DNA of 64,000 bases from Patescibacteria group bacterium. GTDB lineage: Bacteria > Patescibacteriota > Patescibacteriia > GWA2-46-9. Position numbers and translations under genes: made by a program. The DNA lies in contig JBAYUF010000001.1 in the NCBI GenBank assembly GCA_041675205.1, positions 20,863 to 84,862 on the forward strand, read 5' to 3'. Positions within the stretch are counted from its first letter, which is position 1; every line of letters begins with the position of its first letter. The notes under the pieces are model-generated. The model worked only from the letters and a program-made list of their open reading frames with translations. It was not told the DNA's origin and searched no databases. Shown in pieces: positions 2,048 to 55,943 of this stretch.

Positions 2048-2058
2048 GCAATACGACT

Positions 2059-3225: not shown

Positions 3226-3280
3226 AGTAAGAGTATCCTAGCATCGAAATAGAGTACTGAAAATGTGAGTTTTTATGTTT

Positions 3281-3289
3281 TGCTATACT
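3281..3289 (+). promoter_or_regulatory. Extended -10 element TGcTATACT placed 6 nt before an ATG, consistent with a leaderless transcript
   Basis: TGCTATACT-gatgtt-ATG. The same TGCTATACT-N6-ATG arrangement recurs at 17762 and 56166. Confidence 0.5.
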
Positions 3290-3295
3290 GATGTT

Positions 3296-8303: not shown

Positions 8304-8308
8304 ACGTA

Positions 8309-9607: not shown

Positions 9608-9837
9608 AATGAGTTGGTACTGTATAGAAAATTTATGTATTCCGCAACACTCCTTAATTTTTGCAATGCTCCATTTTTTACTGTGTGGTATACTCGCAAA
9701 TATAAATAAGTGCTACGTATATGCCGATTGTTATTGTTCCGAGCGCACCCGTTATTCTTTGTTTTCTTCTCTCGCTGGGGTCGGTTTGGCTGACCACGTT
9801 TCTTTACGCATTCTCATTCGCTTTTGTGTAGGTCAGT

Positions 9838-10554
9838 ATGTCCGGTCATTCGAAATGGGCGACAACCAGGCGTCAAAAAGCGGTGGTGGATGCGAAGCGA
9901 GGCATACAATTTACAAAATTATCACACGCCATCACTGTTGCTGCTAAGGAAGGCGGTGGTGATTTAGCTGCGAATACTCGATTACGCTTGGCAGTTGAAA
10001 CTGCCCGTGCGTCGAGTATGCCAAAAGATAATATTGAACGTGCCATTCATCGCGGCACCGGTGCACTCGCCGGCATGCATGTCGAATCGATTACCTATGA
10101 AGGTTTTGGACCAGGTAGCACGGCACTGTTTATTGAAGCGTTAACCGACAACAGAAATAGAACAGTTGCTGAAGTAAAAAATATTTTTTCAAAGCACTCA
10201 AGTACCCTAGGTAACCCCGGCAGCACGGCCTGGATGTTTTCGCGTTATGGCATGGTTACGTTGTCGCGACCCGAAGCCCTTATTGATGAGCTGGCCTTAA
10301 TCGACCTTGGGGCGGACGACCTCATGCTAGAAGACGAGGCAATTCTATTACTAACAACAGTCGAAGGTTTGGTGGCGCTTGCTGACCGAGCACGCTTAGC
10401 AGGATGGACCGTTACTGAGGCAACGTTGACCTACCTGCCAAAGATACCAACTGAGTTCCCAACCGGTAAAACAGGAGAGCAGTTACTTTCATTACTCACC
10501 ACCCTGGACGAGCATGACGATATTGTAAATGTCTACTGTGTCGCAACAGCGTAA
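9838..10554 (+). CDS. yebC: YebC/PmpR-family transcriptional regulator
   Basis: MSGHSKWATTRRQKAVVDAKRGIQFTKL is the canonical YebC N-terminus. Confidence 0.9.
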   Translation: MSGHSKWATTRRQKAVVDAKRGIQFTKLSHAITVAAKEGGGDLAANTRLRLAVETARASSMPKDNIERAIHRGTGALAGMHVESITYEGFGPGSTALFIEALTDNRNRTVAEVKNIFSKHSSTLGNPGSTAWMFSRYGMVTLSRPEALIDELALIDLGADDLMLEDEAILLLTTVEGLVALADRARLAGWTVTEATLTYLPKIPTEFPTGKTGEQLLSLLTTLDEHDDIVNVYCVATA

Positions 10555-24231: not shown

Positions 24232-24263
24232 GTTTCGCCAGAGCGTATACTAGTTGCGTTAGA

Positions 24264-24288
24264 AAGACGGCAGCCAGCCGTCTTTTTT
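24264..24288 (+). terminator. Rho-independent terminator
   Basis: AGACGGC-agcca-GCCGTCT followed by TTTTTTG. Confidence 0.7.
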
Positions 24289-24370
24289 GCTATTGAAAAA
24301 AGTTGAGAAACGTGTTACAATGTATGCAGAAAATCAAAAAAATAAAGAAAAAATCAATATTATTACTTTT

Positions 24371-27300
24371 ATGATACAACGTTTTCTTGGCGGTCACCTT
24401 TTTCATACAGCAGAGGAGTTGGCGGTAGGCCGAAAAGTTTCGGCTAGAAATTTTGAAAATTCAGTAACGGCTAAATCTTACTTAGCTCGTTCGTTTTTTG
24501 TCGTTGGGTTACTTGTGGGTCTGGGTTTTATTTTTGCCGCGCCGACGCCAACCTATGCCGCAGCAAAAACATGGGATGGTGGCGGTGGTTGTGGCTCCGG
24601 CACGAACAGGTACGCATCCTGCGCAGGCAACTGGAATAGCAACACACTCCCAGTAGACGGGGATTCAATTAATTTTACCGATACAAATGGGTCGCAAGAA
24701 TTCTTATGGGACAATAATACATACGGGACCCTGCCAACAACGGTTGCCTCCTTTACTACCAACTACTATGGCTCAACAAACACCCTAACATTTCAGAAGT
24801 CATTAACAGTTACCGATGAATATCACGCCACGTCTAGTGCAGATAATGTAACGATTAATAGCGGGGTTACGCTAACGGCCGGTTATTTTTTTATAACAGA
24901 TGCAACGGTTACAAATAATGGAACGATTAAATTTACTTGTACCTACGGCACCACCTGTGGCGGGACTAGCCATGACGCTGCATTTTATGGTTCTGGCGCA
25001 CTTGCCTCATCAGCTTCAACTTCAATTGCTGAATATGCAGGTACAAATCAACCCGTATATAACGCCAATTATTACCATCTAAAAATATCTGGAACAGCCG
25101 TTAACTACGGTTTTCAAATTGCAAGTAATGGTCAAATATCAGGGAGCGGGACACTAACAGCTGGTACGGGGACAACCACGTTTAGTGGTAGCGGTACCAT
25201 CAATCTTCCTAACGCTGGATTTACAACGTTGTGGGTAGGTACCAGCGGTACGTTAACAGTTAATCAGAATATTTCAGTGTCAACTAGCATTGGTGCGGGT
25301 CCGTTTACTAGTGGGAATACAATCACCTACGGGGGTACTCCGACCCTCACTATGACCGGCGGTACAATTGCCGCAGCTTCTGTGGCAACCATGAATCTTT
25401 ATAATGTAACCATCGCTGGTGCCGGAGTGACCAGCACAGGGACCCCTAACATTGCAAACGCGTTTGTAGTTAATTCTGGAGCGACCTTTAGTGGTTCTAT
25501 GGCGAAGACCGGTGGTTCAATAACGAACAATGCTGCGACATCGAGCGCCCTAACGATTACGACCCTAGCGCTTACTTCAGGCACGATAACCACTGGTTCC
25601 AATTTTGATTTGTCGACGAGTATTTCTGGGGCGGGGAATTTCACTGCCTCGGCAGGTACCATTACCATGACCATGACAAGTGGCACGGCGATAGCAGCGG
25701 GTGCCGGCACACTGACATTCAATAGCGTTGCTATTGCTTCTGGCGCCACCGTTGCAACAGGTCGTAATTTTAGTGTGGCCGGTAACTGGACGAATAGCGG
25801 CGGAACATTTACGCCAAGCACGTATACCGTTACGTTGAGTGGGGCGGGCGGTTCTACCCAAGTCATCGCAGGTAATACAACCTTTTATAACCTTACGGCG
25901 ACAGCTGCTGCGGCTCGCACCATTCGATTTACCGCTGGCACTACCACTACAGTAACTGGCACGTGGACTGTCACTGGTTCAGCTTCTCAGTTAATAACTT
26001 TACAGTCTTCAACGACGAGTGCTTGGACTATTAACCCCACTGCGGCAAGCGTAAGTTACGCAAGCATTTCTTATTCGACCAATACCGGCGTGGCATTTTG
26101 CGCTACCTATTCTACCGACGGCGGCAATAACACAAGCTGGTCAATTGGAAGTGCCGCCAGTTGCGGCGCAACGATATCTGGTACGGTGTATTCGACCGAA
26201 GGTGGAGCAGGCATCACCGGCACACCAACGGTGCGTATTAAAGTAAATGGTGCTGGCACGTATAGCACAACGGCTAGTAGTGGCGTATTTAGCGTTTCTT
26301 CTGTCGTTGTAAATTCAGGCGATGTAATCACTGTCTATTTGGACACTAACGGTGGTAGCTCAGCAGCCCTCGTTACGGTTTCTGATGGTAGTAATACGTC
26401 GAGCCTCTCCCTCTATCAAAATCAGTTGGTCGTTCGTTATGAAACTGGTTCATCCATAACGAATACGAATCTTGGGCAATACGACAAGGATAACGATTCA
26501 GACATTCATTTTACTTCCAATGCCGGTGTACTGACCGTTGATAGCGATTACGAGTTGCATATTTGGACGGGTAAGACATTTGCACCAGGTGGCACCGTCA
26601 CGGCTAATGGCGATGTGCACATTATGGGTACCTATACCGCACCAGCGACTACGACCGTGGCTGGCAGCTTCACTAACGCTGGTACTTTTACTCCCGGCAC
26701 GGGAACACTGACCTTGTCTGGTACGAGTAAACAAATTACTGGTACCCCAACCAGTGAATCGTTCTATGACCTAACCATTTCAGGCACTGTAGCAAGTACT
26801 CGTAGTTTCACTGTTTCGCACACCATGACCGTAAACGGCACCTTTACACCAGGAGCAAGCGACGTTGTTACCTTAACGGGGGCAACGCTCACGGGGTCGG
26901 GGACAGTTAAAGTTACAAGAACGACAACTATCCCAGCATTCGTTAATCAATATGCCTACACCACCCCAGCGCCAACCTTAACAAATTTGACGGTTGACTA
27001 CAGTGGTACTAGTCAAATAGTAACGAACCTAACGTATTCGAACCTCATCGTTTCCGGAACTATTACAACAGGAACGCAAACAGCAACAGTGAGTGGACTC
27101 TTTACTGTTTCGGGTACGTTTACTCCATCAGCCGGAACGATAACGTTAAGTGGGACAAGCGGCACTGTTTTAACCGTCAGTGGTACACATGCACCAACCG
27201 GCACGGCTACGACCGTCTACAGTGGCGCCAATGCTGGCGGCAATACAAACGTTGCAGCGGCTACCTACAACAACCTTCAGGTGACCGGCGCTGACACCTA

Positions 27301-29998
27301 CGACCTCGCTGGGGACACAACTGTTTCGGGTGTCCTTACTATCGGCGGCTCAGCTACGCTCGACGGAAAGACTCGTACCATCACCCTCTCCGGCACTTCT
27401 GGTACACCCTTCGTCAAAACTGGTACCTTCACTCCTTCAACCTCAACCGTTGTCTACAGTGGTGCCAATGCTAGCAGTAACACCAACGTTGCAGCGGCCA
27501 CGTACAACAACCTCCAGGTTACTGGTAGCGACACCTACGACGTAGCAGGAGACACAACTGTTTCGGGGGTCCTTACTATTGGCGCAAACGCCACCCTAGA
27601 CGCCCAAACATACACAGTAACGCTATCTGGTTCTGGTACACCACTTGTAAAGACAGGTACATTTACCGCTTCAACCTCAACCGTAACGTATAGCGGTAGT
27701 TCACCTACCATTGCAGCGACTACGTATAACGTCTTGAATCTGTCTGGCTCTGGCACAGCAGTATTGCCGAGCGGTACCCTGGCAGTACTAGACTTAAATG
27801 TAACTACTGGAACAGTTTCTGCCGCGAGCAATAACCCAACCATTAACGTCAGTGGAAACATTGCATTGTCGAGTGGTGTTACCTATACAAAAGGTTCTGG
27901 TACTACGACGTTTTCTGGTGCCTCGAAGACAATTACTGACAGTACGGCTAGCGCACAGGATTTGGGTGTAGTTTCAATTTCTGGGACCTATGCTCTCTCG
28001 TCGAATGCTAAAATGACCAGCGTAGCCGGAGCCGGAGCATTAACAACGAATGCCAATACCCTAACGTTGACCGGTTCTGGTACCGTTTTGTCTGTTACGA
28101 CATTTACCGCTTCGACTGGTTCTACGGTTACCTATACCAGCGGAAGCGGTGCTTCTGTTGGTGCAAGGACCTACTACAATCTGACCATCAATGGTACGGG
28201 TACGTTCGCTGCGGCGGGTGCTATCATTGTGAATAACGATCTGACGGTGACCAGTGGAACCTTGGCCATGGATACGAGTAACCTACAAGTTGGTTTATCG
28301 AGTATCTCAAGTTCTGGTAGCGTTAAGGTTGCGGCAAGTCAATCGCTCACTCAATCAGCCAGTGGGACCACAACAATTCTTAGTTCGTCAGCCGGAGCAA
28401 ATTGTATTGGCTCCAATGGCTCCAATTGCAGTGGGACGGCAGGAACAATTACTCTTGGTGGCTTGTCGATTGGGGATGGAGTGTCAGGCAACTTCACAAC
28501 AACTCTTGCCGGAGATGTCACTATTGCTGGTGTCCTCACTATTGCTAGTACAAACACGCTCGACGGTTCGACTCGCACCATAACCCTCTCTGACACCTCT
28601 GGTACACCGTTCGTGAAAACCGGTACCTTCACCCCTTCAACCTCAACCGTTGTCTACAGTGGTGCCAATGCTGGCGGCAATACAAACGTTGCAGCGGCCA
28701 CGTACAACAACGTCCAGGTTACTGGTAGCGACACCTACGACGTAGCAGGAGACACAACTGTTTCGGGTGTCCTTACTATCGGCGCCTCGGCCACGCTCGA
28801 CGGTTCGACTCGCACTATCACTCTCTCCGGCACCTCCGGTACACCTCTTGTCAAAACCGGTACCTTCACCCCTTCAACTTCGACCGTTGTCTATAGTGGT
28901 GCCAATGCTAGCGGTAACACCAACGTTGCAGCGGCTACGTATAATAACCTCCAGGTTACTGGCAGCGACACTTACGACGTAGCAGGGGACACAACTGTTT
29001 CAGGGGTCCTTACCATTGGCGCCTCAGCCACGCTCGACGGTTCGACTCGCACTATCACTCTCTCCGGCACTTCTGGTACACCGCTTGTCAAAACCGGAAC
29101 CTTCACTCCTTCAACTTCGACCGTTGTATTTACTGGTGACAATGGTGGTGGAACAACAACCATTCCAACAGCAACCTACTACAATCTTACAGTGAACAAT
29201 GCGAGCGAAACGTATGCGCTTGGTTCGGGGAGTCCAGTGGTGAACAATGATTTAACTATTACTGCCGGTACCCTTGACCTCGACGCAAGTGACCCGTCGC
29301 TCTCAGTAAAGGGAGACGTGGTAATTGCCGGTACGCTCCTTGGTTCGGCTAGTAGCCCCCTCAATGTTGATGGTGACTGGACCAACAATGGTACATTCAC
29401 TCATTCAAACGGTACCGTTGCATTTACGAACAGTGCGGGGTTACTGGAAACGTCAAATATTGGTGGCTCAAACGGTACGAACTTCTACTCACTCAGCGTC
29501 ACTGCGAATGGAAAGTATCTTCGATTTGCGGCCGCCAAAACGTTTGGGGTTGCTGGTGTGCTGACGATTACGGGTGGTCAAGCTATTCCCGACAACATTC
29601 GTATTTTCTCAAGTACTGTCGGGGCTGGTTCAAGTAGTGATCAGTGGCTGCTTAATCTCACTGGTTCCTCGAATGTTCTCTTCGCGATTGTTCAGAACGC
29701 TGGCTGTGCGCCAGGGTCAAGTTCTGTGGCCTCGCACTCAACGAATACAAACGCCGGGAATAACAGTGCGTGTTGGCCCTTTGGTGTTCCTGGAGCGCCT
29801 GATGTGACTGGTGGTCGTTTTGATCAACCCGGCGGGGGTACGGCTACAACCGGCGGTACAAGCCTTAGTGGAGGTATTAGTGGTGGCGGAGGCGGTGGCG
29901 GAGCACCAAGTCCTGACCGACTTGATGAACCGGGTGGTGGCGCACCGACAACGGGTGGAACTGATCAAGGAAGTGGTGGTGGAGCACCTGCTCCGTAG
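24371..29998 (+). CDS. Giant surface repeat protein (about 1875 aa) with an N-terminal anchor and at least 5 copies of an 80-aa T/S/G-rich module
   Basis: Hydrophobic SFFVVGLLVGLGFIFAA. Repeated module TRTITLSGTSGTP(F/L)VKTGTFTPSTSTVVYSGANA..NTNVAAATYNN.QVTG.DTYD.AGDTTVSGVLTIG. Gly-rich C-terminus. The start is uncertain: the ORF-track 24287 and the ATG at 24320 both overlap the upstream terminator and a TGtTACAAT -10, so 24371 is plausible. Confidence 0.65.
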   Translation: MIQRFLGGHLFHTAEELAVGRKVSARNFENSVTAKSYLARSFFVVGLLVGLGFIFAAPTPTYAAAKTWDGGGGCGSGTNRYASCAGNWNSNTLPVDGDSINFTDTNGSQEFLWDNNTYGTLPTTVASFTTNYYGSTNTLTFQKSLTVTDEYHATSSADNVTINSGVTLTAGYFFITDATVTNNGTIKFTCTYGTTCGGTSHDAAFYGSGALASSASTSIAEYAGTNQPVYNANYYHLKISGTAVNYGFQIASNGQISGSGTLTAGTGTTTFSGSGTINLPNAGFTTLWVGTSGTLTVNQNISVSTSIGAGPFTSGNTITYGGTPTLTMTGGTIAAASVATMNLYNVTIAGAGVTSTGTPNIANAFVVNSGATFSGSMAKTGGSITNNAATSSALTITTLALTSGTITTGSNFDLSTSISGAGNFTASAGTITMTMTSGTAIAAGAGTLTFNSVAIASGATVATGRNFSVAGNWTNSGGTFTPSTYTVTLSGAGGSTQVIAGNTTFYNLTATAAAARTIRFTAGTTTTVTGTWTVTGSASQLITLQSSTTSAWTINPTAASVSYASISYSTNTGVAFCATYSTDGGNNTSWSIGSAASCGATISGTVYSTEGGAGITGTPTVRIKVNGAGTYSTTASSGVFSVSSVVVNSGDVITVYLDTNGGSSAALVTVSDGSNTSSLSLYQNQLVVRYETGSSITNTNLGQYDKDNDSDIHFTSNAGVLTVDSDYELHIWTGKTFAPGGTVTANGDVHIMGTYTAPATTTVAGSFTNAGTFTPGTGTLTLSGTSKQITGTPTSESFYDLTISGTVASTRSFTVSHTMTVNGTFTPGASDVVTLTGATLTGSGTVKVTRTTTIPAFVNQYAYTTPAPTLTNLTVDYSGTSQIVTNLTYSNLIVSGTITTGTQTATVSGLFTVSGTFTPSAGTITLSGTSGTVLTVSGTHAPTGTATTVYSGANAGGNTNVAAATYNNLQVTGADTYDLAGDTTVSGVLTIGGSATLDGKTRTITLSGTSGTPFVKTGTFTPSTSTVVYSGANASSNTNVAAATYNNLQVTGSDTYDVAGDTTVSGVLTIGANATLDAQTYTVTLSGSGTPLVKTGTFTASTSTVTYSGSSPTIAATTYNVLNLSGSGTAVLPSGTLAVLDLNVTTGTVSAASNNPTINVSGNIALSSGVTYTKGSGTTTFSGASKTITDSTASAQDLGVVSISGTYALSSNAKMTSVAGAGALTTNANTLTLTGSGTVLSVTTFTASTGSTVTYTSGSGASVGARTYYNLTINGTGTFAAAGAIIVNNDLTVTSGTLAMDTSNLQVGLSSISSSGSVKVAASQSLTQSASGTTTILSSSAGANCIGSNGSNCSGTAGTITLGGLSIGDGVSGNFTTTLAGDVTIAGVLTIASTNTLDGSTRTITLSDTSGTPFVKTGTFTPSTSTVVYSGANAGGNTNVAAATYNNVQVTGSDTYDVAGDTTVSGVLTIGASATLDGSTRTITLSGTSGTPLVKTGTFTPSTSTVVYSGANASGNTNVAAATYNNLQVTGSDTYDVAGDTTVSGVLTIGASATLDGSTRTITLSGTSGTPLVKTGTFTPSTSTVVFTGDNGGGTTTIPTATYYNLTVNNASETYALGSGSPVVNNDLTITAGTLDLDASDPSLSVKGDVVIAGTLLGSASSPLNVDGDWTNNGTFTHSNGTVAFTNSAGLLETSNIGGSNGTNFYSLSVTANGKYLRFAAAKTFGVAGVLTITGGQAIPDNIRIFSSTVGAGSSSDQWLLNLTGSSNVLFAIVQNAGCAPGSSSVASHSTNTNAGNNSACWPFGVPGAPDVTGGRFDQPGGGTATTGGTSLSGGISGGGGGGGAPSPDRLDEPGGGAPTTGGTDQGSGGGAPAP
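27211..27710. repeat. Tandem array of about 240-bp units (2+ copies) inside the giant gene
   Basis: Direct repeats at about 90% nucleotide identity that encode the 80-aa module. They are related to the second array at 28520-29140. Confidence 0.8.
28520..29140. repeat. Second tandem array of about 240-bp units (about 2.5 copies) inside the giant gene
   Basis: Near-identical units starting near 28560, 28800 and 29040. Confidence 0.8.
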
Positions 29999-46114: not shown

Positions 46115-46498
46115 ATGAACGCGACGCATCTTGCAACAGAGGAAAAATTTAAAGATTTGCGGGTGTGGCAGCAAGCCCACGAGTTAACACTTTTGGTGTA
46201 TAAGATAACAAAAAGTTTCCCTGACACGGAGCGTTTTGCCTTAGTAAGCCAAATGCGTCGTGCAGCAATCTCAGTGGTTGCCAATATTGTCGAAGGGTCT
46301 AAACATCGTACAACGAAGGATCGTATTCATTTTCACGTTATAGCAAATGGCTCGCTCGAAGAGTTAAAATACTACTTCATTTTATCGTTAGATCTCGGAT
46401 TCATTAACCAGAAAGAGCAGGAAGACTTACTTGATTTGGCGAGAGGCGTTGGTGCTATGTTACATGGTCTTACTAATGCTCTGCGCAGTGGCGTATAG
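46115..46498 (+). CDS. Four-helix-bundle protein of the TIGR02436 family (23S rRNA intervening-sequence protein type)
   Basis: LRVWQQAHELTLLVYKITKSFPDTERFALVSQMRRAAISVVANIVEGS is the family signature; 127 aa. Confidence 0.85.
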   Translation: MNATHLATEEKFKDLRVWQQAHELTLLVYKITKSFPDTERFALVSQMRRAAISVVANIVEGSKHRTTKDRIHFHVIANGSLEELKYYFILSLDLGFINQKEQEDLLDLARGVGAMLHGLTNALRSGV

Positions 46499-46525: not shown

Positions 46526-47316
46526 CCATTCTTTTCCTGGGTGACGTTGTAGGGCGAGTTGGCCGTACTGGTGTTGCGAAAGTTTTAAAGCACTGGAAGA
46601 CCCAACTGCAGCCAGATGTCATTATCGCGAACGCTGAAAATATTGCGCATGGGAAGGGCATTACCCGGGCGACCATCGAGGAATTACGTGTCGCTGGTGT
46701 CGATGCTTTTACTAGTGGGAACCATGTTTTCCGAAAGCCAGAGATTTACGATTTTATTGAGGACCCGAAATTGCACATTACTCGGCCGGCGAATTATCCG
46801 CCCGGCGTCGCTGGTAGTGGCGCCACCTTGGTGCCCACCCCACATGGTGACCTACTCCTCATAAACACGATGGGACGAGTTTTCATGCATGAAACATTGG
46901 ATTGCCCGTTTCAGGCGGTCGATTCGGTTCTGGCGGATTACCAAAATCGCCCGCACGTCGCCACCTTTGTTGATATGCATGCTGAAGCGACCAGCGAAAA
47001 GATAGCCTTCGGTCACTACCTTGATGGTCGGGTTAGTGCTGTTGTTGGCACCCACACGCACGTAGCGACGGCTGACGCAGAGATTTTACCTGGTGGCACG
47101 GCGTACATTACTGATGTTGGTATGTGCGGCTATAAAGGTGGTGTGCTTGGCGTTGATAAAGCTAACGTACTACATGCCTTTTTAACGCAAGAGCCAGTTC
47201 GTCATGAAATTCCAGAAGCTGGTTTGTGTGCTGTAAACGGCGTGCTCGTTGTTATTGATGCCTCTAACGGCAAGGCAATTTCTATTCGGCAACTGCACGA
47301 AGAAGTGATGGTGTAG
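46516..47316 (+). CDS. ymdB: YmdB-family metallophosphoesterase (2',3'-cyclic-nucleotide phosphodiesterase, TIGR00282)
   Basis: MGLAILFLGDVVGRVGRTGV...DVIIANAENIAHGKGIT...GNHVF. Confidence 0.85.
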   Translation: MGLAILFLGDVVGRVGRTGVAKVLKHWKTQLQPDVIIANAENIAHGKGITRATIEELRVAGVDAFTSGNHVFRKPEIYDFIEDPKLHITRPANYPPGVAGSGATLVPTPHGDLLLINTMGRVFMHETLDCPFQAVDSVLADYQNRPHVATFVDMHAEATSEKIAFGHYLDGRVSAVVGTHTHVATADAEILPGGTAYITDVGMCGYKGGVLGVDKANVLHAFLTQEPVRHEIPEAGLCAVNGVLVVIDASNGKAISIRQLHEEVMV

Positions 47317-47340
47317 TGCCTGGGGGGTGCGACATTTAGC

Positions 47341-47369
47341 AAAAACCCAGCCTGGCGGCTGGGTTTTTT
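47341..47369 (+). terminator. Rho-independent terminator after the ymdB-like gene
   Basis: AAAA-CCCAGCC-tggc-GGCTGGG followed by TTTTTTG. Confidence 0.8.
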
Positions 47370-47376
47370 GTACTCT

Positions 47377-48480
47377 CATGGGGCACGCAGGAGGAGAGAG
47401 ATTTTCTCGCGGCAAACGCTTCTTTTTGAAGAGAGGCGTCTACGTTTGAGATCTGCGTACCCCATGAGAGTGGGCGAGGGTGAAGAGGAAAACGGTTGAA
47501 GATACAATTTTCTTTCTTCACCCTCGCCCGGCGCTGAAGGAGGCTCTTCGGCGCCCTTTGAAGATAATGCAAAGTCGCAGTATCGGCAAAGGGCAACGCA
47601 CCTCATTATTATATGGGAAGAGGCGGAAAACGAGTGCTGTCGTTTTTCCGCCCCGAAGAACGTGGAGTGGGTGCATTTAGGTGCACAACCACTCCGCATC
47701 GACCGGGTTGACGCTCATTGATGAGCCTTTTTCCACGGTCTGGAGAAAGACGGAGGGGGTAGAAGGAAAGTACCACCACACCTCCGCAGCGCGCACAAAT
47801 GAGCCAAAGAGTGACCGGACGGTTTTTTCCGTAGTCGTTTTCTCTTTTTGTGCACATTCCGCGCGCTAAAGAAACTAGGGTGGGAGAATCGTGGAGCGTT
47901 GCGCTCCGGAAGGAATTCTCTTGGTGGACATCCACCCTAGGGTCCACAAGGGACCAGTTCTTTGTGAGTATTTTTACCCACGGACCTTGGGATTAGAAGC
48001 TGGAAGTATTGATCCAAGGGATCACTTCCGAAAGAGTAGTTTCAAAGAAGTGGCGCAGGATAAGCCGAACCAAATCTTTTCTCTACCGCCTTGGCTCTAT
48101 AGCGAGCACAAGTCTAACCCCGAAGTCCGTAGGCAGCTCTGATAACAGAGCACCCACGGATGTTGGCCTTGTTAGAGACTCCCACCACCCTCCGGGCTAA
48201 GCGCTGGCGTGACCCGAAGGTTGCCGGCGTAATGATCTTTTAGCAGGGACTCGCGAGTTTGCACCAGCGAAAGCCTTGCTTTGAAATCTGCCCGTCCACG
48301 AAACGTGGAACAGGTTTAGCCCTTAAGGGTGGTAGGAACCTCACGCGATAACAAAACGGCGCAGCCGCTTTTGAAAGAGACTGCGCCGTTTTGGCGTACA
48401 CCAACTAACCCTAACGGGTTTGTTGGCGAGTCTCTCTCCTCGCGTTTTGACTGAGGTTAAATTCAAAGAGCACGGTTTGT
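47377..48480. ncRNA. Candidate large structured non-coding RNA of unknown family (or an array of structured elements)
   Basis: 1.1 kb at GC of about 55% with no ORF above 112 aa in any frame, in an otherwise 90%-coding genome. Several perfect stem-loops: a 15-16 bp stem at 47472-47487 / 47515-47529; an 11-bp stem at 47622-47632 / 47641-47652; nested helices at 47875-47940 (CTAGGGTGG...CCACCCTAG enclosing GGAGCGttGCGCTCC); and long-range pairing 47377-47390 with 47453-47466. Confidence 0.3.
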
Positions 48481-48677
48481 TCCATTTAAGGAACTAAGTA
48501 GCATAGCGCAGCTTAGGGAATATGTCAAGACTTAACAAGAAAAGAGCTGTATTTACTAAGAAAATAGGAGTTTTTGGTCATTTGTGGAAACTAAATCTAT
48601 CGGTTAGAGTACTTGTGTATAGAGTAAAAGCACGTTTTTTGAGGCCTTAATAGAATCATCCTTGAACCAGGAACGCC

Positions 48678-50231
48678 TTGAATTTTAAGTATAGGAAGAG
48701 AAGTAAATTGGTACGATTTATGACACCACATTATTTAAATGACAAAGATCCCTGGTTACTGGGAGAGAATATTCCTGACTCAGATATTTTCTTTTTTCAA
48801 ATTGTCTTCTCGTCATTTACAAACGACAGAAGTTACTCGTTCATTAAAAAGTACAAGAAAGTAATAGCTCCGTACGATAAATTTAATATGAGTTTCTATT
48901 TTGGAGAGAGAGATTCGTATCTTGTTGCGGAGAGCGTATTAAGGGCTTTGATAGAGCGTCCAAAGTTTGCCACAGAGCTAAATCGTAATATTGTTGCCTG
49001 GTCCAAAAAACTTATGCTATTTGCGCGTAGGGTAGCAAGAAAACCTTTGCATAAATTTTCAAATACGGCATTGTGGCGGTTATATGATGAACATGATCGT
49101 GTGCATACCAAGCTATACACGTATGGATGGTTGCCAGTGTCGGTCGATATGTTTCACAACAATATGACCACTGAGCTAAAGCGACGCTTGGCAAAAGTCT
49201 GTACATCGAGTCAAGAAGTCAACGAAGCTTTTGTTTTACTTACGACTCCTTCACAAAAAACAATTATTGCCAAAGAGCGTGAAGAGTTTTTGGCGATTTA
49301 TACTAAAGCAAAACCATATCTAAGAAAGAGTGTTACTGCTGTTGCATTTCCGCTAAGCCTTCAGAGACTCTGTCGTCGACATCAGCAGCGCTGGGGGCAT
49401 CTTGGATATATTTACGCCGGTAATGTAGAGCCGTTTTCGGTGCAATATTATATTCAAGAGATGGTTGATCTTAAGCGAAGCAACATAGAGGTAAGTAGTT
49501 TATTGATAAAAGAAAAAAGCCAATTGCTGGAAGCAGTGCGTAAGCAAAAAGCATTTTATAAAAAAAATAAGATGTCTCCTGAAGATGTGCGTTTATTTGC
49601 CGCCGCGAGAGATTTTTCAATAAGTAAACTTTTTCGCCGCCACGCCCAGCTGCTTGATCTTTATCTTCTGCACAAAAGCTTATTATCAGAAATTGCTCAG
49701 CGCCTTAGCCTGACACGTTTTCAGGTCCAGTTTATGTTGAAAGACGAAATAAAGGCGGCGCTTATCAATGGCAAAGTTGATGACTCCTTGTTGTCTGAGC
49801 GTTTAAAACAGGGCGTTTATTATACGGAGCCGGGTCTTGAAACTGTTTACACGGGCCGCAAGGCACGAGTCTTGGCTAAGGCGCTTGCTAGTGTTGGCAT
49901 TGGTGAAGGGGACGAAGTTACTGGTCAAACGGCCCAACCGGGTTATGCAAAAGGTGTTGTGAAAATTATTATTCGGGCGAAGGATATCGCAAAGATGAAT
50001 AAAGGTGACATTTTGGTGTCTATCGCTACTGACCCTGATATTGTGCCAGCCATGAAAAAAGCCGGAGCGATTGTTACTGATCAGGGCGGCATAACGTCGC
50101 ATGCCGCAATTGTAAGTCGAGAGCTAAATAAGCCGTGCGTGATAGGAACTAAATATGGCAGTAAGATTTTTAAAGACGGCGATATTGTTGAAGTAGATGC
50201 AACGAACGGGATTGTAAGAAAAGTTACTTAA
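48678..50231 (+). CDS. PEP-utilizing-enzyme swivel (phospho-His) domain protein, paralog A: unknown 400-aa N-terminal domain plus C-terminal mobile His domain
   Basis: C-terminal GDILVSIATDPDIVPAMKKAGAIVTDQGGITSHAAIVSRELNKPCVIGT is the PEP-utilizers (PF00391) signature with the catalytic His. TTG start (alternative ATG at 48720). AT-rich. Confidence 0.65.
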   Translation: MNFKYRKRSKLVRFMTPHYLNDKDPWLLGENIPDSDIFFFQIVFSSFTNDRSYSFIKKYKKVIAPYDKFNMSFYFGERDSYLVAESVLRALIERPKFATELNRNIVAWSKKLMLFARRVARKPLHKFSNTALWRLYDEHDRVHTKLYTYGWLPVSVDMFHNNMTTELKRRLAKVCTSSQEVNEAFVLLTTPSQKTIIAKEREEFLAIYTKAKPYLRKSVTAVAFPLSLQRLCRRHQQRWGHLGYIYAGNVEPFSVQYYIQEMVDLKRSNIEVSSLLIKEKSQLLEAVRKQKAFYKKNKMSPEDVRLFAAARDFSISKLFRRHAQLLDLYLLHKSLLSEIAQRLSLTRFQVQFMLKDEIKAALINGKVDDSLLSERLKQGVYYTEPGLETVYTGRKARVLAKALASVGIGEGDEVTGQTAQPGYAKGVVKIIIRAKDIAKMNKGDILVSIATDPDIVPAMKKAGAIVTDQGGITSHAAIVSRELNKPCVIGTKYGSKIFKDGDIVEVDATNGIVRKVT

Positions 50232-50236
50232 ATAAT

Positions 50237-51709
50237 GTGACTCAAAAAGGAAAACAAGAGTGGATACTAGGAAACGAGGAGGAGGGCGTTAGCCCGTGGT
50301 CCTTGGGTGTTTTTACGCCAGCCTTTCGTTTTGGTGTTGCTCGTCGCGCTCAATATTCCATCCCACACTTCATTGTGTTTGAAGGTACTCATATGCGTTG
50401 GATACCTAGTAAAAAAGATACAGAACAACTCTCAGAAAGGTTATTGAAGAAACAAATAAAAAATCAAAATTACCTTACGTTTGTGAGCCATCAATCGGTC
50501 AAATCTTGTGATAGATTGTATGACTTTTCTGATAAATGTTTAGAATATAATTACAGCCCTCTTAGCAATAAAGAGTTCGCCAACTTTTTTATCAATCACG
50601 AAAAGTTAGTTAGGGATGTTCTTGGTTGGGGCGTACTCCCGGCCTTAATGGATATTCCGCGCCCGGTGCTTTCCGATTACGCTACAGAGCTGCTATCTAA
50701 AAGAATTCGCCAGTTAAAGTTAATGGATTCTTCGGCCGATTGTTTTGCCAGCTTAACTGCGGATATTGATAATAATATTCAACGGCAAGAACGGTTAGCT
50801 TTAAAACGATTGGCCGTTGTGATTTACAAAAATCAGAAAAATGTAGAGGAGCGAATAAAAAAACATATAGCCAAATTTTCTTGGGCTTACTACGGATATA
50901 TTGGGCCAATACTTAATGCTGGCCATGTAAAAAAGGAACTTAAAAGGTTGTTTAAAGAAATTAAAAAAACAGAAAAAGAATTAAAACAATTGCCACACGA
51001 AAAAAGACAAATCAAAAAAAAGCGATTGGAAATGGAACGTAAGTTAAAATTGACCACAGCCGAGCGTAAACTTTTTGAAGGAATGAGAGAAGTGATGATT
51101 ATGAAGGCTGCTCGTCGTGATGCCTTGTCTTATTCTTTTTATGCTATGCAAGGCGCACTTCAAGAGCTTGCTCGGCGGTCTGGTGTGTCAATTAATCATA
51201 TTCAAAACGTAGCTCCTTGGGAGCCGTCGTTACTGCTTCAAGGTAATTCTGATTTAAAAAAGGAATTACCAAAACGAAGTAAGATTTGTATTCTCGATGG
51301 AACTACTGTTAAACTTCGCGTTTTGTCTGGTGTCAAAGCAAAACAGTTTTTAAAGCAAAATTATAAGTCTGAAGTAGTAAAAAACAGTAAGGAGTTAAAA
51401 GGTCAGGTTGCCTGTGTAGGTATGGCTAGAGGTAAGGTAAAAATTGTTAATACGCCGTCTGACATGGTCAAGATGAAGCAAGGGGACATTCTTGTTTCTA
51501 TTGCCACCACACCGGATATTGTGAGTGCTATGCGTAAAGCGGGAGCCATTGTAACGAATACTGGGGGTATTACCTCTCATGCGGCAATTGTGTCTCGGGA
51601 GCTTAATGTTCCCTGCGTGATAGGTACGAAGTTTGCAACCCAGGTATTTAAAGATGGTGATATGGTTGACGTGGATGCAAACAAGGGAATCGTGAGACGG
51701 ATTAAATAA
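50237..51709 (+). CDS. PEP-utilizing-enzyme swivel-domain protein, paralog B
   Basis: C-terminal GDILVSIATTPDIVSAMRKAGAIVTNTGGITSHAAIVSRELNVPCVIGT. The N-terminus aligns with paralogs A and C (K.EWILGNEEEG..PW.LGVF). GTG start. Confidence 0.65.
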   Translation: MTQKGKQEWILGNEEEGVSPWSLGVFTPAFRFGVARRAQYSIPHFIVFEGTHMRWIPSKKDTEQLSERLLKKQIKNQNYLTFVSHQSVKSCDRLYDFSDKCLEYNYSPLSNKEFANFFINHEKLVRDVLGWGVLPALMDIPRPVLSDYATELLSKRIRQLKLMDSSADCFASLTADIDNNIQRQERLALKRLAVVIYKNQKNVEERIKKHIAKFSWAYYGYIGPILNAGHVKKELKRLFKEIKKTEKELKQLPHEKRQIKKKRLEMERKLKLTTAERKLFEGMREVMIMKAARRDALSYSFYAMQGALQELARRSGVSINHIQNVAPWEPSLLLQGNSDLKKELPKRSKICILDGTTVKLRVLSGVKAKQFLKQNYKSEVVKNSKELKGQVACVGMARGKVKIVNTPSDMVKMKQGDILVSIATTPDIVSAMRKAGAIVTNTGGITSHAAIVSRELNVPCVIGTKFATQVFKDGDMVDVDANKGIVRRIK

Positions 51710-51719
51710 CTAGCAGTTT

Positions 51720-53240
51720 ATGGCATCAAAAAAAGATTGGTATGTTTGGGGTGAGTGGCCAGGAATTCCCTGGTTCAATAGTTGTTATATGTACACTCTT
51801 TCGTTAGATCTTTCAAAACGTACTGGTATACCAATTACACATTTTGCGACTGATTATAAAGAAGGGGTTCAACGCGTTTATTTGTTACGGCATGAATGGG
51901 AAAATGGTGGATTTTTGTATCTCAAAAAAATTCTCAGGAATCCTAATAGTTTAATCAAAGCGTTGGAGTCTATTGAGAGTAATGCAAAGAAATTAAAAGA
52001 GTTTAATAGCGAGGTACGGAAAATTGCAGTGGAAGCTTGCACATTGAATGAGTTGGCAACATTGTGTCATCGGTTTCACAAAATTAACCATGAATTATGG
52101 TCTGCGGGGATGGTTCCCAATTTATTAGAATTAAACCAAGCGCACCTTTCGGGTTATTTGCGCGGGTATATTAACAAACAAACTAAATCAGATATTTCTG
52201 CAGATGACTGGCAAATTTTGATTACGCCAACTAAAAAGTCGGCGGCCCAACAGGAAGAACTTTCGTTACTCTTGCTTGCTAATAAGATTTCAAAGAACAT
52301 CAAGTTGAGACAGTTGTTTGAACGCAAGCAAAATGACGTTTCTGAAGCAATCGAGCTTTTACATTTTCCAAAGATTAAACAAGAAATTCGTCAGCATTAC
52401 CAGAAATATAAATGGTTACAATTTGGATGGACTGGCCCAGATTCTACTCCTGAACAACTAATCGGACGATTGGCGGCCCTACTTCACGAAGGTTATGTTT
52501 CAACCTGCCTTCAGGACAAAATTCAGGCGGAACAAGTAGTAGCAAGGAAACAAAAATCATTGCTGTCGTCGATTGGCGTTGATAGAGAACATCGACAGTT
52601 GTTACAGTTACTTCAACGAATATTATTTGTAAAGACAGTACGCATGGATGCGCTTTACGAAGGTTACTCAGCCTTTCATCCGGTAGTACAGGAGATTGCT
52701 AAGCGTTTTTCACTTTCCTTGAATCAGCTTTATATGGTGTACCTTGGTGATTTAGAACATGCGGTGAGAACAAAATCCTTTGACCATGAAAAATTAAATG
52801 CACGTTCCCGTTATTCTGCGTGTATTAAACAGAACGATCGTCTTGTATTTTACAGTGGTGAGCAAGCCCATAAGAAAATGAGCTTAATAATTTCAAGTTT
52901 ACCCAAGGTTAAAAAAACCCATACAGTTAGTGGTGAGTGTGGGTATCCGGGGAAGATCAGTGGTGTAATTAGGTTCGTTCCGACATCGAAGGATATGTAT
53001 AAAGTAAAAAAGGGAGATATTTTATTATCCCAAGCAACTGACCCGTCTTTTTTGCCGGCCATGGAAAAGGCTGCTGGCTTTGTTACGGATTTGGGTGGCT
53101 TAACAGCTCATGCCGCTATTGTCGCTCGTGAAATGAAAAAACCTTGCGTGGTTGGTACAAAAATTGCCACAAAGATTTTTAAGGATGGCGATATAGTTGA
53201 AGTGGACGCAAGTAGGGGGATTGTTAAGAGAATAAAGTAG
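51720..53240 (+). CDS. PEP-utilizing-enzyme swivel-domain protein, paralog C
   Basis: C-terminal GDILLSQATDPSFLPAMEKAAGFVTDLGGLTAHAAIVAREMKKPCVVGT. Confidence 0.65.
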   Translation: MASKKDWYVWGEWPGIPWFNSCYMYTLSLDLSKRTGIPITHFATDYKEGVQRVYLLRHEWENGGFLYLKKILRNPNSLIKALESIESNAKKLKEFNSEVRKIAVEACTLNELATLCHRFHKINHELWSAGMVPNLLELNQAHLSGYLRGYINKQTKSDISADDWQILITPTKKSAAQQEELSLLLLANKISKNIKLRQLFERKQNDVSEAIELLHFPKIKQEIRQHYQKYKWLQFGWTGPDSTPEQLIGRLAALLHEGYVSTCLQDKIQAEQVVARKQKSLLSSIGVDREHRQLLQLLQRILFVKTVRMDALYEGYSAFHPVVQEIAKRFSLSLNQLYMVYLGDLEHAVRTKSFDHEKLNARSRYSACIKQNDRLVFYSGEQAHKKMSLIISSLPKVKKTHTVSGECGYPGKISGVIRFVPTSKDMYKVKKGDILLSQATDPSFLPAMEKAAGFVTDLGGLTAHAAIVAREMKKPCVVGTKIATKIFKDGDIVEVDASRGIVKRIK

Positions 53241-53248
53241 TATTTAGT

Positions 53249-53277
53249 TTGACAAATCACTAATAAAAGGGTATAAT
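53249..53277 (+). promoter_or_regulatory. Perfect-consensus sigma70 promoter TTGACA-N17-TATAAT upstream of the histidine-phosphatase-like gene
   Basis: TTGACA aatcactaataaaaggg TATAAT, 29 nt before the ATG at 53306. Confidence 0.6.
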
Positions 53278-53305
53278 TGCTTTATTAAATTTAAATAAGA
53301 TTATT

Positions 53306-54193
53306 ATGTTTCACGAAAATTCATTTTCCGAGGCGCACAGAGAAGCAAAAGATGAAGGGAGAGAAAAAGGGAAAAATGTTTCTGTACAGTTTGTTTTTAG
53401 ACGTCATGAGGAGCCAGGAAAGACTCCAACAGGTATGTCAGCAGATTTTTTAACTGAGAAAGGAATCGCTGGTGCGAAGCAGCGTGGACATGACTTAGCA
53501 AACAGTGGTGAGTACGTAATGTTTTTTGGTAGTAAAGGTGTTCAACGGGCACGTGAGACCGCGGGGCATATGATTGGCACATTTCGTGATGAAGCAGGGG
53601 CTGCTGCACTTATTAATAAGCCAATGACAGCAGAGGATCAGCAACGTGCAGGTCATGGTGAATTACCGCCCGGAGACGTTGCTATTTATCGATCGAGTGA
53701 TCTTAATCCTGTTCCTAATTTTGCCAAAATAAATGAAGCAGCAAAAGCTGAGGGGGCAAAGACGATAGATGAGAGCGTGCAGTACTGGTTGGATAATCCT
53801 GAAAAGGCAAAAGAGTTGGCTGCGGGAACCCCAGAGGAAACGGCTGCTGAGTTGGCACACCGATTGGGTCTTGGTATAAAAATGTCGGGGAAATTATACG
53901 AAGACACGAACTTAAGAGTGGAGAATTTGACTCATGGTCCGAAGCTCGAAGCGTTACTACATGAAGTAATGATTGATGATACTGGCAAACGGGGGTTTGG
54001 CCGACTCGAAGAGATGGGAGGAATGTTTCAACCAGGTGAAGATGTAAATTTGGCAATTCATCGTAATGATGAAGGGGAACTAGATCTAGGTGGTATAGAC
54101 TTTCGTGGAAAACACTATGGTGTAGATATGGAGCGTCTTGATGAGTTGCGAGACCTTTACAGGAAAATGCAGGAAGAAAAACGTAAAAAGTAA
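53306..54193 (+). CDS. Histidine phosphatase superfamily (PGM/SixA-like branch) protein, divergent
   Basis: FVFRRHEEPGKT resembles the RHG[EQ] catalytic motif with G replaced by E. FFGSKGVQRARETAG resembles the SPLxRAxQTA motif, and a later AGHGE region is present. Confidence 0.45.
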   Translation: MFHENSFSEAHREAKDEGREKGKNVSVQFVFRRHEEPGKTPTGMSADFLTEKGIAGAKQRGHDLANSGEYVMFFGSKGVQRARETAGHMIGTFRDEAGAAALINKPMTAEDQQRAGHGELPPGDVAIYRSSDLNPVPNFAKINEAAKAEGAKTIDESVQYWLDNPEKAKELAAGTPEETAAELAHRLGLGIKMSGKLYEDTNLRVENLTHGPKLEALLHEVMIDDTGKRGFGRLEEMGGMFQPGEDVNLAIHRNDEGELDLGGIDFRGKHYGVDMERLDELRDLYRKMQEEKRKK

Positions 54194-54209
54194 CAATTAA
54201 TTTCGAATC

Positions 54210-55181
54210 ATGTTCAGTAAGGTATTTGAGGAGATAACAAAAAAAAACGTTAAAGAAGCCGGAGGCAAAGGTGCATCATTGGGTGAAATGACCCACCTTC
54301 TCCAAGGATTCGGCGGGCAAGCCCACGGAGTGGTGCCGCCGGGTTTTGTTGTTCTGGCCGGTGCCTTTGATAGATTTCTGAAAGAAACTAATCTGAATCT
54401 TAAGATTGAAGCTGTTCTCAAAAAAGTAAAATCTAAGGATTTAAATTCAGTTGAAGTTGCCTCAGAAAAAATCAGAGCTCTGATGGAACGGGAGAAAATA
54501 CCAAAAGATATTCAGGTAGAAATTAAGGAATCATATCAAACGTTGAGCAAAGGAAGGGCTATGTTTGTGGCAGTTCGCTCGTCTGCCACCGCGGAAGATT
54601 CTAAGGCTGCTTCTTGGGCAGGGGAACTCGAAACGTATTTGAACGTCACAGAGAAAAATCTCATGCAGTCGGTCATGAAATGCTGGTCGTCATTATTTAC
54701 GCCGCGAGCTATTTTTTATCGCTTTGAGAAAAAGCTTCATCGTACCCCTGTTTCAGTCGCTGTTGTGGTGCAGCAAATGGTTCAGTCTGAAGTGTCAGGC
54801 ATTGCGTTTACTGTTCATCCAGTAACAAAGGATTACAACCAAATGGTTATAGAAGCGGGGTTTGGTCTTGGTGAGGCAATTGTATCTGGGCAAGTAACGC
54901 CAGATACGTATGTCATAGACAAAAAGAAATTTGGTCTTCTTGATATCAATGTATCAACACAAAAATTTAAAATTGTGAGAGGGCCGAAAGGCAACAGTGA
55001 TAAAAAATTGAGTGAGGCCGCGGGTAGTAAACAAAAACTAACTGGTAAAGAAATTATTGAGTTAGCTAAACTGTGTGTAGCTATTGAGAAGCATTATAAA
55101 CATCCGCAAGACATCGAGTGGGCTTTTGTAAAAGGAAAATTTTACATTACGCAGTCGAGGCCGATTACGACGCTCGGTTAA
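54210..55181 (+). CDS. Stand-alone PPDK_N (PEP synthase / rifampin phosphotransferase-type ATP-binding) domain protein
   Basis: KEAGGKGASLGEMTHLL...VPPGFVVLAGAFDRFLKE and later AVRSSATAEDSKAASWAGELETYLNV match Pfam PPDK_N (PF01326). There is no fused His or PEP-binding domain. Confidence 0.75.
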   Translation: MFSKVFEEITKKNVKEAGGKGASLGEMTHLLQGFGGQAHGVVPPGFVVLAGAFDRFLKETNLNLKIEAVLKKVKSKDLNSVEVASEKIRALMEREKIPKDIQVEIKESYQTLSKGRAMFVAVRSSATAEDSKAASWAGELETYLNVTEKNLMQSVMKCWSSLFTPRAIFYRFEKKLHRTPVSVAVVVQQMVQSEVSGIAFTVHPVTKDYNQMVIEAGFGLGEAIVSGQVTPDTYVIDKKKFGLLDINVSTQKFKIVRGPKGNSDKKLSEAAGSKQKLTGKEIIELAKLCVAIEKHYKHPQDIEWAFVKGKFYITQSRPITTLG

Positions 55182-55196
55182 TTGTCAGTAAACGTT

Positions 55197-55243
55197 AACG
55201 ACCCCCTTGCTTCTCCTTGCAAGGGGGTCGTTCGTTATTTCTT
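55197..55243 (+). terminator. Rho-independent terminator after the PPDK_N gene (end of the island operon)
   Basis: AACGACCCCCTTGC-ttctcctt-GCAAGGGGGTCGTT followed by CGTTATTTCTT. Confidence 0.75.
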
Positions 55244-55268
55244 GCCAGTTGGTTGAGGCGCAGCCGTT

Positions 55269-55808
55269 TCAGCTGAGCAAGGACCACGCTTCGCGAAATT
55301 TCGCGTATTTCCCGCGATACGGTCGTTCTCTGGTCGACCGCGTGATGTAGGCACTCTTTTTCCCTGCAAGTGCATCCCAGGGTATAACGTATATCCGGTC
55401 TATGATTCGACCCTGGTTATTGGTCGGCACACAGACGAAGAAGTCGGTATACTCCTTCAGATGTTTTCTTGTTCTTCTCCTGCATGGGCCGAGGTTGAAG
55501 AAAGCGGCTTCATAGTGGTATCGGTATTCCCAGTTACCACTTTTCGTCCAACTAGACCGCTTTTTCATCCAGCCCGTTCGAACTGCTATGCGCTGAGTTC
55601 GTCCACCTACCTGGACAGTAAAATCGTAGCAGCATTGCCAGTCGCTATATCCGTAGACCTGATGGTACGAAATACCCAGGTCAGCGAACAATGTTGCCAT
55701 CCTCGCGACGGTCGCCGCGTGCACCATATGAGGTGCTTTTTTATTTTTCATCGGTGACACCCTCTTCAGTTGCTGGCCGTATCTTAGTTGATGCTCGTTT
55801 TGTGTCAA
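55269..55808 (-). CDS. Hypothetical protein (179 aa), possibly nuclease-like, next to tRNA-His
   Basis: GC-normal ORF. Weak resemblance to restriction-endonuclease-like folds (YDF...EYRYHYE...FFVCVP) is speculative. Confidence 0.35.
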   Translation of the reverse strand: MTQNEHQLRYGQQLKRVSPMKNKKAPHMVHAATVARMATLFADLGISYHQVYGYSDWQCCYDFTVQVGGRTQRIAVRTGWMKKRSSWTKSGNWEYRYHYEAAFFNLGPCRRRTRKHLKEYTDFFVCVPTNNQGRIIDRIYVIPWDALAGKKSAYITRSTRERPYRGKYAKFREAWSLLS

Positions 55809-55867
55809 TCTTTACATACTAACGCCCGAAACGTTATGATGAGCGCACTTCCAAAAGGCACTAGTGG

Positions 55868-55943
55868 GGCGGCCATGGTGTAGTGGTTAGCACAAGAGGT
55901 TGTGGACCTCTCGGTGAGGGTTCAATTCCCTCTGGCCGCCCCA
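55868..55943 (+). tRNA. tRNA-His (GTG) with encoded G-1 and CCA
   Basis: G-1 pairs with C73. Acceptor GCGGCCA/TGGCCGC, D-stem GTGT/GCAC, anticodon stem AGAGG/CCTCT with loop TTGTGGA (anticodon GTG), T-arm GAGGG-TTCAATT-CCCTC, CCA encoded. Confidence 0.85.

Follow-up and report, generated by a model that had tools for sequence, protein, structure and literature searches.

The two-component dikinase HpeHI, whose HpeH component joins a RIF-binding domain to a phosphohistidine swivel, has homologs in CreHI and in the phenylphosphate synthase PpsAB, and in the Hpe pathway the substrate is phosphorylated, carboxylated and dephosphorylated in turn (PMC12167813). The single-polypeptide counterpart of these systems is rifampin phosphotransferase (RPH). 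The present analysis concerns a cassette of five genes that recalls both and that lies at 48720-55181 of a 64,000-nt stretch of a Patescibacteria group bacterium (contig JBAYUF010000001.1 of assembly GCA_041675205.1, positions 20,863 to 84,862; hereafter, the window). Specifically, three acceptor paralogs are followed by p295, a protein with a histidine-phosphatase fold, and by a stand-alone ATP-grasp subunit, and the whole block is flanked by a GC-rich structured non-coding region on the left and by tRNA-His on the right. The preferred reading, to which a probability of roughly 60% is assigned, is that the cassette encodes a split RPH-like small-molecule dikinase and that it became AT-rich through replacement at an ancestral locus. 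Patescibacteria are ultra-small bacteria with genomes of about 1 Mb from which many pathways are absent, and the uptake and processing of host metabolites by these organisms is an open question.

Domain architecture of the acceptor paralogs

The three acceptor subunits are encoded one after the other at 48720-50231 (paralog 1, 503 aa, or 517 aa if translation starts at the TTG at 48678), 50237-51709 (paralog 2, 490 aa) and 51720-53240 (paralog 3, 506 aa, with the catalytic His464), all on the plus strand. After an N-terminal region of about 400 aa, each carries a C-terminal PF00391 domain, that is, the "mobile" domain of phosphoenolpyruvate (PEP) utilizers or phosphohistidine swivel, detected with E-values of 4.5e-24 in paralog 1 (residues 441-511 of the 517-aa form), 2.3e-24 in paralog 2 and 3.6e-26 in paralog 3; the Pfam search of the N-terminal ~400 aa returns no match in any of the three. 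The AlphaFold2 (AF2) model of paralog 3, obtained with 65 homologs, has a pLDDT of 94.2 and predicts a mainly helical N-domain with two small beta elements. Over its whole length, this model matches only rifampin phosphotransferase in the PDB (5fbt, 5fbu and 5hv1; best 5fbt, E 2.8e-14, TMq 0.58), whereas pyruvate phosphate dikinase (PPDK), enzyme I and pyruvate kinase cover the swivel alone with TMq <=0.2. RPH is likewise the only whole-length structural match of HpeH (PMC12167813). Moreover, phmmer aligns residues 335-503 of the paralog query with residues 701-864 of RPH, past the swivel and into the RIF-binding domain.

The residues expected of a phosphohistidine enzyme are conserved. The TDLGGLTAH464 motif is kept in 65 of 65 sequences, the TxxGGxxxH pattern is intact in all three paralogs, and T456, G459, G460, H464, R470 and E471 are invariant or almost so in the 65-sequence alignment. 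In the N-domain, H226, K305 and R308 are almost invariant and occur in all three paralogs; the phmmer register would place K305 and R308 near Arg666, Glu667 and Lys670 of RPH, which hold the transferred phosphate (PMC4844700).

The swivels of the three paralogs are 52-65% identical to each other and, since their substrate domains share just 17-21% identity, each acceptor most likely handles a different substrate. Each paralog also has its own orthologs in other genomes, which argues that the paralogs are ancient and, presumably, that their substrates are not the same: for paralog 1, the orthologs in L005 and L006 (L-numbers denote related loci) share 39-41% identity, paralog 2 is 81% identical to the product of L002 5036-6508, and paralog 3 has orthologs at 71% (L002), 49% (L005) and 38% (L006) identity. 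The N-domain alone retrieves 736 representatives at E <=1e-3 from a library that holds one representative per 50%-identity cluster; family members are mostly about 500 aa long, some are tandem fusions of 1000-2300 aa, and the sources named for relatives are Patescibacteria and DPANN archaea. The tandem fusions P0141, P0143 and P0147 carry 2-4 copies of the substrate-binding N-domain per polypeptide.

The ATP-grasp subunit and p295

The last gene of the cassette (54210-55181, plus strand) codes for a 323-aa ATP-grasp protein made of PPDK_N only: PF01326 covers it with an E-value of 9e-95 (model positions 2-312 of 328), and no other domain is found. Its full-length matches are the ATP-grasp part of RPH (5fbs, 1e-62) and the structure 9goj (1.2e-45), which is HpeI (PMC12167813). 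The NCBIfam models of RPH score 189-272 bits on this protein, below their cut-offs of 999-1700; specifically, NF041857, with a cut-off of 999, gives 272 bits here and 50-67 bits on the acceptors, and on the cassette proteins as a whole no NCBIfam model exceeds its cut-off.

The gene upstream (53306-54193, plus strand) codes for p295, a protein of 295 aa without a match in Pfam, PF00300 included, or in NCBIfam. Its AF2 model (pLDDT 91.5) retrieves by Foldseek 50 top matches that all belong to the histidine phosphatase superfamily (best E 9.5e-07), led by the phosphoglycerate mutase 3r7a, RosC 9emu, TIGAR and PhoE, and R33, H34, R81 and H210 are invariant across 17 homologs. The predicted fold and the catalytic residues (RH of the RHG motif, second Arg, second His) assign p295 to this superfamily. 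In 6 of 6 distinct loci, a PEP-utilizers gene or a fragment of one lies at most two called genes from the p295 homolog.

Proposed enzymology and physiological role

Homology to RPH and to the two-component dikinases HpeHI, CreHI and PpsAB suggests the following course. The 323-aa ATP-grasp protein would bind ATP and transfer the beta-phosphate to the swivel histidine of each acceptor of about 500 aa (TxxGGxxxH; His464 in paralog 3), with the conserved swivel presumably offering a common docking surface to the single ATP-grasp. The swivel would then return to the helical RIF-binding-like domain of its own protein and phosphorylate the hydroxyl-bearing small molecule bound there, with AMP, Pi and the phospho-compound as the expected products. 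The co-transcribed p295 most likely takes the phosphate off at a later step, which would result in a phosphorylate-modify-dephosphorylate route as in the Hpe pathway. As for the physiological role, the trapping or activation of small molecules coming from the host or the environment is preferred.

A more far-reaching version of this scheme, to be taken as tentative, is that one ATP-grasp charges a battery of many divergent acceptors (3 here, more than 12 elsewhere, some of them tandem-fused), each devoted to its own small molecule, in a cassette that is swapped between RNA-gene anchors. In the related loci, the acceptors number from 1 to more than 12 (4 in L002, about 9 in L005, 5 in L006; in L034, more than 12 within 21 kb), and L002, L006, L036, L038 and L041 each show just one PPDK_N gene in the stretch available. 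These arrays also carry HAD and histidine-phosphatase genes, and their scattered neighbours have metabolic functions (NAPRTase, RibBA, riboflavin genes, peptidases). Two of the cassettes contain, on the opposite strand, a His_Phos_1 gene (L002 8218-8904 and L006 17198-17827, both minus), GC-rich in either case (GC 0.60 and 0.65, GC3, i.e., GC at third codon positions, 0.73 and 0.85, in loci at GC 0.39-0.40) and without a counterpart in the window.

Some Patescibacteria spend more than 20 kb on the acceptor family. If one ATP-grasp does serve many substrate-specific acceptors, the RPH/HpeHI class of dikinases would acquire a new organisational principle, and the battery would represent a modular and laterally exchangeable means for symbionts with tiny genomes to trap, activate or neutralise host compounds; it would also offer a tractable in-vitro entry to the chemistry that Patescibacteria perform on outside compounds. 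In addition, the assignment corrects a misannotation as "PEP synthase" or "PEP-utilizing enzyme" that is likely widespread in the metabolic reconstructions of these organisms.

Related loci

Relatives of the locus were obtained through protein matches and, from these, the contigs encoding them. The search of genome contigs with YmdB yielded distant non-Patescibacteria genomes only and no syntenic relative, and the search of metagenome contigs with paralog 2 yielded a single distant locus at 40% identity. Two contigs share the surroundings of the cassette with the window, and no closer relatives were retrieved. L002 is a 13.6-kb metagenomic contig (JGI 3300013125) that starts inside the non-coding region and continues with four paralogs, p295, the ATP-grasp gene, tRNA-His and the kinase gene. 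L036 is a 112-kb JGI contig (3300025150) with infB, rbfA, DHH, ClpP, rny, YmdB, the GC-rich non-coding stretch, a cassette remnant and tRNA-His, followed, in the same order as in the window, by the P-type ATPase, the histidine kinase (minus strand), a 255-aa gene (minus strand) and an SMC-like gene. L037, a shorter contig, has the same arrangement as L036 from the cassette remnant rightward.

With respect to the window, the flank proteins of L036 are 49-88% identical and the cassette proteins 65-78% identical; the kinase, the one flank gene shared with L002, is 76% identical. The L036 cassette (7489-9921) is decaying: its paralogs are fragmentary, including a 103-aa swivel fragment, the ATP-grasp gene is cut by a stop codon, and a 273-aa ORF (GC 0.30) and an rve-family transposase on the minus strand are also present. 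The cassette of L037 is degraded as well. Since the window, L002 and L036 share the cassette site between the same anchors, the locus is ancestral to the three lineages.

Base composition and origin of the cassette

The initial annotation had delimited an AT-rich block at 48480-55250, and sliding-window GC bears it out, with edges correct within about 50 nt. GC ranges from 0.373 to 0.438 over 48501-55000 (1-kb windows) against 0.482 for the mean of the whole stretch; in 200-nt windows, it drops near 48450, from 0.485 to 0.39, and comes back up at about 55200. The five genes, all on the plus strand as first noted, have a GC of 0.412, 0.394 and 0.393 (paralogs 1-3), 0.445 (p295) and 0.418 (ATP-grasp), corresponding to z-scores of -1.4 to -3.2 against 0.486±0.029 for the 37 other genes of the window. 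Their GC3 of 0.33-0.38 corresponds to z-scores of -1.8 to -3.0 against 0.453±0.040 (Mann-Whitney p ~1e-5 for cassette versus other-gene composition), and the overall contrast amounts to -0.07 in GC and -0.09 in GC3. Because GC at four-fold sites is also lowered (0.27-0.44 versus 0.471±0.047), the AT shift is partly synonymous and not due to amino-acid content alone. The reported richness in AAA among lysine codons did not hold as such, the AAA share of 0.62-0.76 falling inside the 0.38-1.0 seen in the background; the difference lies in lysine content, 7-12% versus a typical 2-7%. The anomaly also has limits: the tetranucleotide deviation of the cassette is moderate (z ~1.9) and smaller than that of two giant genes at 18.7-30 kb, and the genes at 887-3868 are likewise GC-poor (0.42-0.44). 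The two neighbouring giant ORFs (18679-29998; 1850 and 1903 aa) have a GC at second codon positions (GC2) of 0.54-0.60, a lysine content of 1.2-1.6% and the largest tetranucleotide deviation of the window.

AT-richness as an intrinsic property of the gene family was considered and rejected: across eight loci, the cassette-minus-neighbour offset in GC runs from +0.03 to -0.10, and family members reach a GC of 0.54 in L040. Lateral origin is instead the best reading of the AT-richness, and the comparison of the three lineages gives it a form. In L036, the flanks have a GC of 0.47-0.51 and the cassette remnants a GC of 0.30-0.42 and a GC3 of 0.27-0.33; in L002, the cassette is similar in composition to its kinase flank (GC 0.37, GC3 0.27). 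For the kinase, the pairwise comparisons of the three lineages give nearly equal values (76.4, 75.9 and 77.0% aa identity; 69-70% nt), and the tRNA and the non-coding region are likewise roughly equidistant. In contrast to the flanking kinase, which is 77% identical in aa and 70% in nt between L002 and L036, the same two loci share p295 at 88% aa and 85% nt, the ATP-grasp protein at 86% and a paralog-2 fragment at 89% nt. Read most simply, these identities suggest that the L036 lineage exchanged its resident cassette, between conserved anchors, for an AT-rich one of the L002 kind. Since the window shows the same kind of AT contrast as L036, an analogous but older replacement is favoured for its cassette, by a copy from an AT-richer related patescibacterium and likely through recombination in the conserved flanks rather than by an integrase. 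The cassette thus appears to be better described as a replaceable unit at an ancestral locus that is swapped between lineages, and AT-richness next to a tRNA gene can reflect such a unit rather than an inserted island.

Vertical inheritance of a native operon, made AT-rich by its lysine-rich proteins and by weak codon selection at low expression, is a possible account of the same data, although on the unlikely side. The synteny across the three lineages agrees with it, as do the divergence of the window cassette from L036, which equals that of the flanks, the lysine content of 7-12%, which depresses GC at the first and second codon positions, the further low-GC genes of the window, and the decay of the L036 cassette, which is consistent with relaxed selection. 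However, the GC deficit extends to four-fold sites, the GC of the family equals or exceeds that of the neighbours in L040, L041 and L032, and the 86-88% identity of the L002 and L036 cassette genes stands against 77% for the kinase and against a tRNA and a non-coding region that are trichotomous.

Weighing of the readings

Several points weigh against the split dikinase in a replaced cassette. On the side of the enzymology, the sequence identity between acceptors and RPH is just 17-18% and the TMq of 0.58 is moderate; the RPH models reach only the swivel and the end of the N-domain of the acceptors (35-67 bits against cut-offs of 999-1700), and PRK08296 (PpsA-like) aligns with their swivel region at 57-92 bits, with cut-offs set at 578-730. 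The sharing of one ATP-grasp by the three acceptors is deduced from gene counts, and p295 might, like SixA, remove the phosphate from the histidine of the swivel instead. On the side of the origin, the case for replacement draws on one flank protein (356 aa of the kinase), the tRNA and the L002 non-coding region, and L002, a short metagenomic contig, could be chimeric. Moreover, no close donor is found for the window cassette, whose best match is 66-81% identical in aa, and the cassette and flanks of the window are about equally diverged from those of L036, which fits vertical descent or an old exchange.

The same enzymology may also serve another role, namely an RPH-like resistance battery that inactivates antibiotics or toxins of the host or of competitors by phosphorylation, and this is considered unlikely. 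The sole solved structure that covers the whole acceptor is that of an antibiotic-inactivating kinase, the RPH-like enzymes are a large family of which at least some members act on antibiotics (PMC4844700, PMC12167813), one related cassette contains a gene for an MBL-fold hydrolase, and rph-like hits have been reported from genomes of the candidate phyla radiation (CPR; PMC8651080). Conversely, a dedicated phosphatase from that very operon would reverse such an inactivation, the neighbours in related loci are metabolic and include HAD phosphatases, and the RPH scores in NCBIfam are far under the cut-offs. PADLOC gives no meaningful defence match on the cassette, with a lone AbiEii hit at E 0.0029 over 25 residues.

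A classical genomic island, that is, a recent and strain-specific insertion by an integrase beside tRNA-His, is very improbable and has been largely refuted. The initial annotation had proposed a horizontally acquired island; the composition anomaly behind it is real and lateral origin is its best explanation, but the block is no strain-specific insertion by tRNA-His, the same locus being present in L002 and L036. Indeed, relatives with the same genes at syntenic positions, which that annotation had named as evidence against its own proposal, exist to the letter in these two contigs, and L036 shares the AT contrast as well. An AT-rich block that adjoins a tRNA, genes all on one strand, the rve-family transposase within the L036 cassette and, in L002, the 17 nt of tRNA-His leader and 5' end that occur twice speak for an island. 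On the other hand, no integrase domain is present in the window (Pfam search), and neither a repeat of the tRNA-His 3' 25-mer, even at 3 mismatches, nor flanking direct repeats are found within it, as the initial annotation had already remarked for the integrase and the tRNA 3'-end repeat; L002 and L036 have the cassette in the same place, with the same pair of anchors around it; and the identity of its proteins to those of L036 (65-78%) is on a par with that of the flanks (49-88%).

Lastly, misannotated central metabolism, i.e., a PEP synthase or a PPDK in pieces, has its origin in database names ("PEP-utilizing enzyme" for the paralog-3 clusters, "phosphoenolpyruvate synthase" for a remoter match) and in PEP synthase models being the best partial NCBIfam matches, but it is refuted by domain content, as no cassette protein contains PF02896 (the PEP/pyruvate TIM-barrel), the N-domain is helical and RIF-binding-like, and the models cover the swivel or the ATP-grasp only, at 92-338 bits against cut-offs of 598-740.

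Anchors and transcription signals

The left-hand anchor is a GC-rich region of about 1.15 kb (47372-48531), located between YmdB and the cassette, that contains no ORF and is probably an undescribed large structured RNA, likely transcribed from the minus strand. Rfam returns no family for it, whether the window, L002 and L036 are searched at gathering thresholds or 47250-48750 at E <=1; the searches yield tRNAs and microRNA-type noise only. Its homologs (L002 200-1100 and L036 5866-7315) are about 60% identical across the three lineages, and about 60 of the 152-170 predicted pairs stay paired through changes on both sides in the three sequences. The minus strand folds better (-187 versus -140 kcal/mol) and carries cUUCGg loops; its likely promoter, TTGACA-N17-TATGCT, runs from 48528 to 48500, with a TTGACA invariant in the three lineages, and falls within the coordinates first given for the island. 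Compared by blastx with the cassette proteins, the non-coding region of the window shows no pseudogene remnant; in L002, the same comparison detects a 37-aa swivel remnant at 1226-1336. Farther left, the window has a 23S_rRNA_IVP / bAvd-like four-helix-bundle gene (46115-46498, GC 0.43) that separates rny from YmdB, two genes that are direct neighbours in L036.

Within the cassette, a sigma-70-type promoter, TTGACA-N17-TATAAT, is located upstream of the p295 and ATP-grasp genes (53249-53277, plus strand); the perfect consensus initially read there is confirmed (12 of 12 positions) and is kept at the homologous place in L002 (12/12) and L036 (11/12). The cassette is closed by an intrinsic terminator on the plus strand (55197-55232; 14-bp stem with 9 GC pairs and a T-rich tail), and the right-hand anchor, tRNA-His (GTG), is identified by ARAGORN and Rfam at 55869-55943 on the plus strand, both where the initial annotation had put them. 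In L002 and L036, the tRNA sits in the same place after the cassette, and the stop codon of the ATP-grasp gene directly abuts its promoter. The segment of about 600 bp at 55182-55810 is peculiar to the window; it holds the terminator and orf179 (55269-55808, minus strand, 179 aa), an ORFan outside the cassette that is indeed GC-normal (GC3 0.57), finds no homolog but itself among 5.8e9 proteins, and has no match in Pfam, NCBIfam or PADLOC. In L002, a 17-nt copy of the tRNA-His leader and 5' end (GCATTAGTGGGGCGGCC) is found at about 12100-12190, some 50 nt upstream of the tRNA, and may be a recombination footprint at the junction between cassette and tRNA.

Comparison with known systems

With tRNA-linked islands, the cassette shares the AT-rich block beside a tRNA and the signs of lateral exchange among relatives, but it has no integrase or att repeats, its site is occupied in 3 of the 3 related lineages examined, and the exchange would consist of replacement between anchors. 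PEP synthase and PPDK have in common with it the ATP-grasp and swivel domains and the phosphohistidine dikinase chemistry expected of them; in contrast, the cassette lacks the TIM-barrel, its swivel is C-terminal rather than central, and its components are separate genes.

The likeness to RPH (5FBS, 5FBT, 5HV1) is closer, since ATP-grasp, RIF-binding-like domain and histidine swivel are all present and the last two follow each other in the same order. However, RPH unites its modules in a single chain of about 865 aa, whereas the ATP-grasp of the cassette is a separate gene placed after the acceptors; the cassette proteins are thus not the single chain that defines the RPH family, nor do they score above the cut-offs of NF041857 and NF000283, and rifamycin is unlikely as an acceptor substrate.

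The cassette most resembles HpeHI, CreHI and PpsAB. As in these systems, the ATP-grasp stands alone, with no swivel or substrate domain, the acceptor consists of a RIF-binding-like domain followed by a C-terminal T/SxxGGxxxH swivel, and the genes of the components are adjacent; moreover, the Hpe pathway includes a dephosphorylation step and the cassette includes a phosphatase gene. The differences concern the size of the acceptors (about 500 aa, against 71 kDa for HpeH), the PRK08296 models of the PpsA/HpeH-like family, which align with the swivel of the cassette acceptors alone and leave them outside that family, the patescibacterial host with no sign of aromatic catabolism genes near the cassette, and the histidine-phosphatase fold of the linked phosphatase. 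The number of acceptors per ATP-grasp gene differs as well, with three in the cassette and more than 12 in relatives, while the described two-component dikinases are not known to have more than one acceptor each. By analogy, the cassette is therefore filed as a system that would work like a two-component dikinase of the RPH/HpeHI type and yet belongs to a distinct and expanded sequence family.

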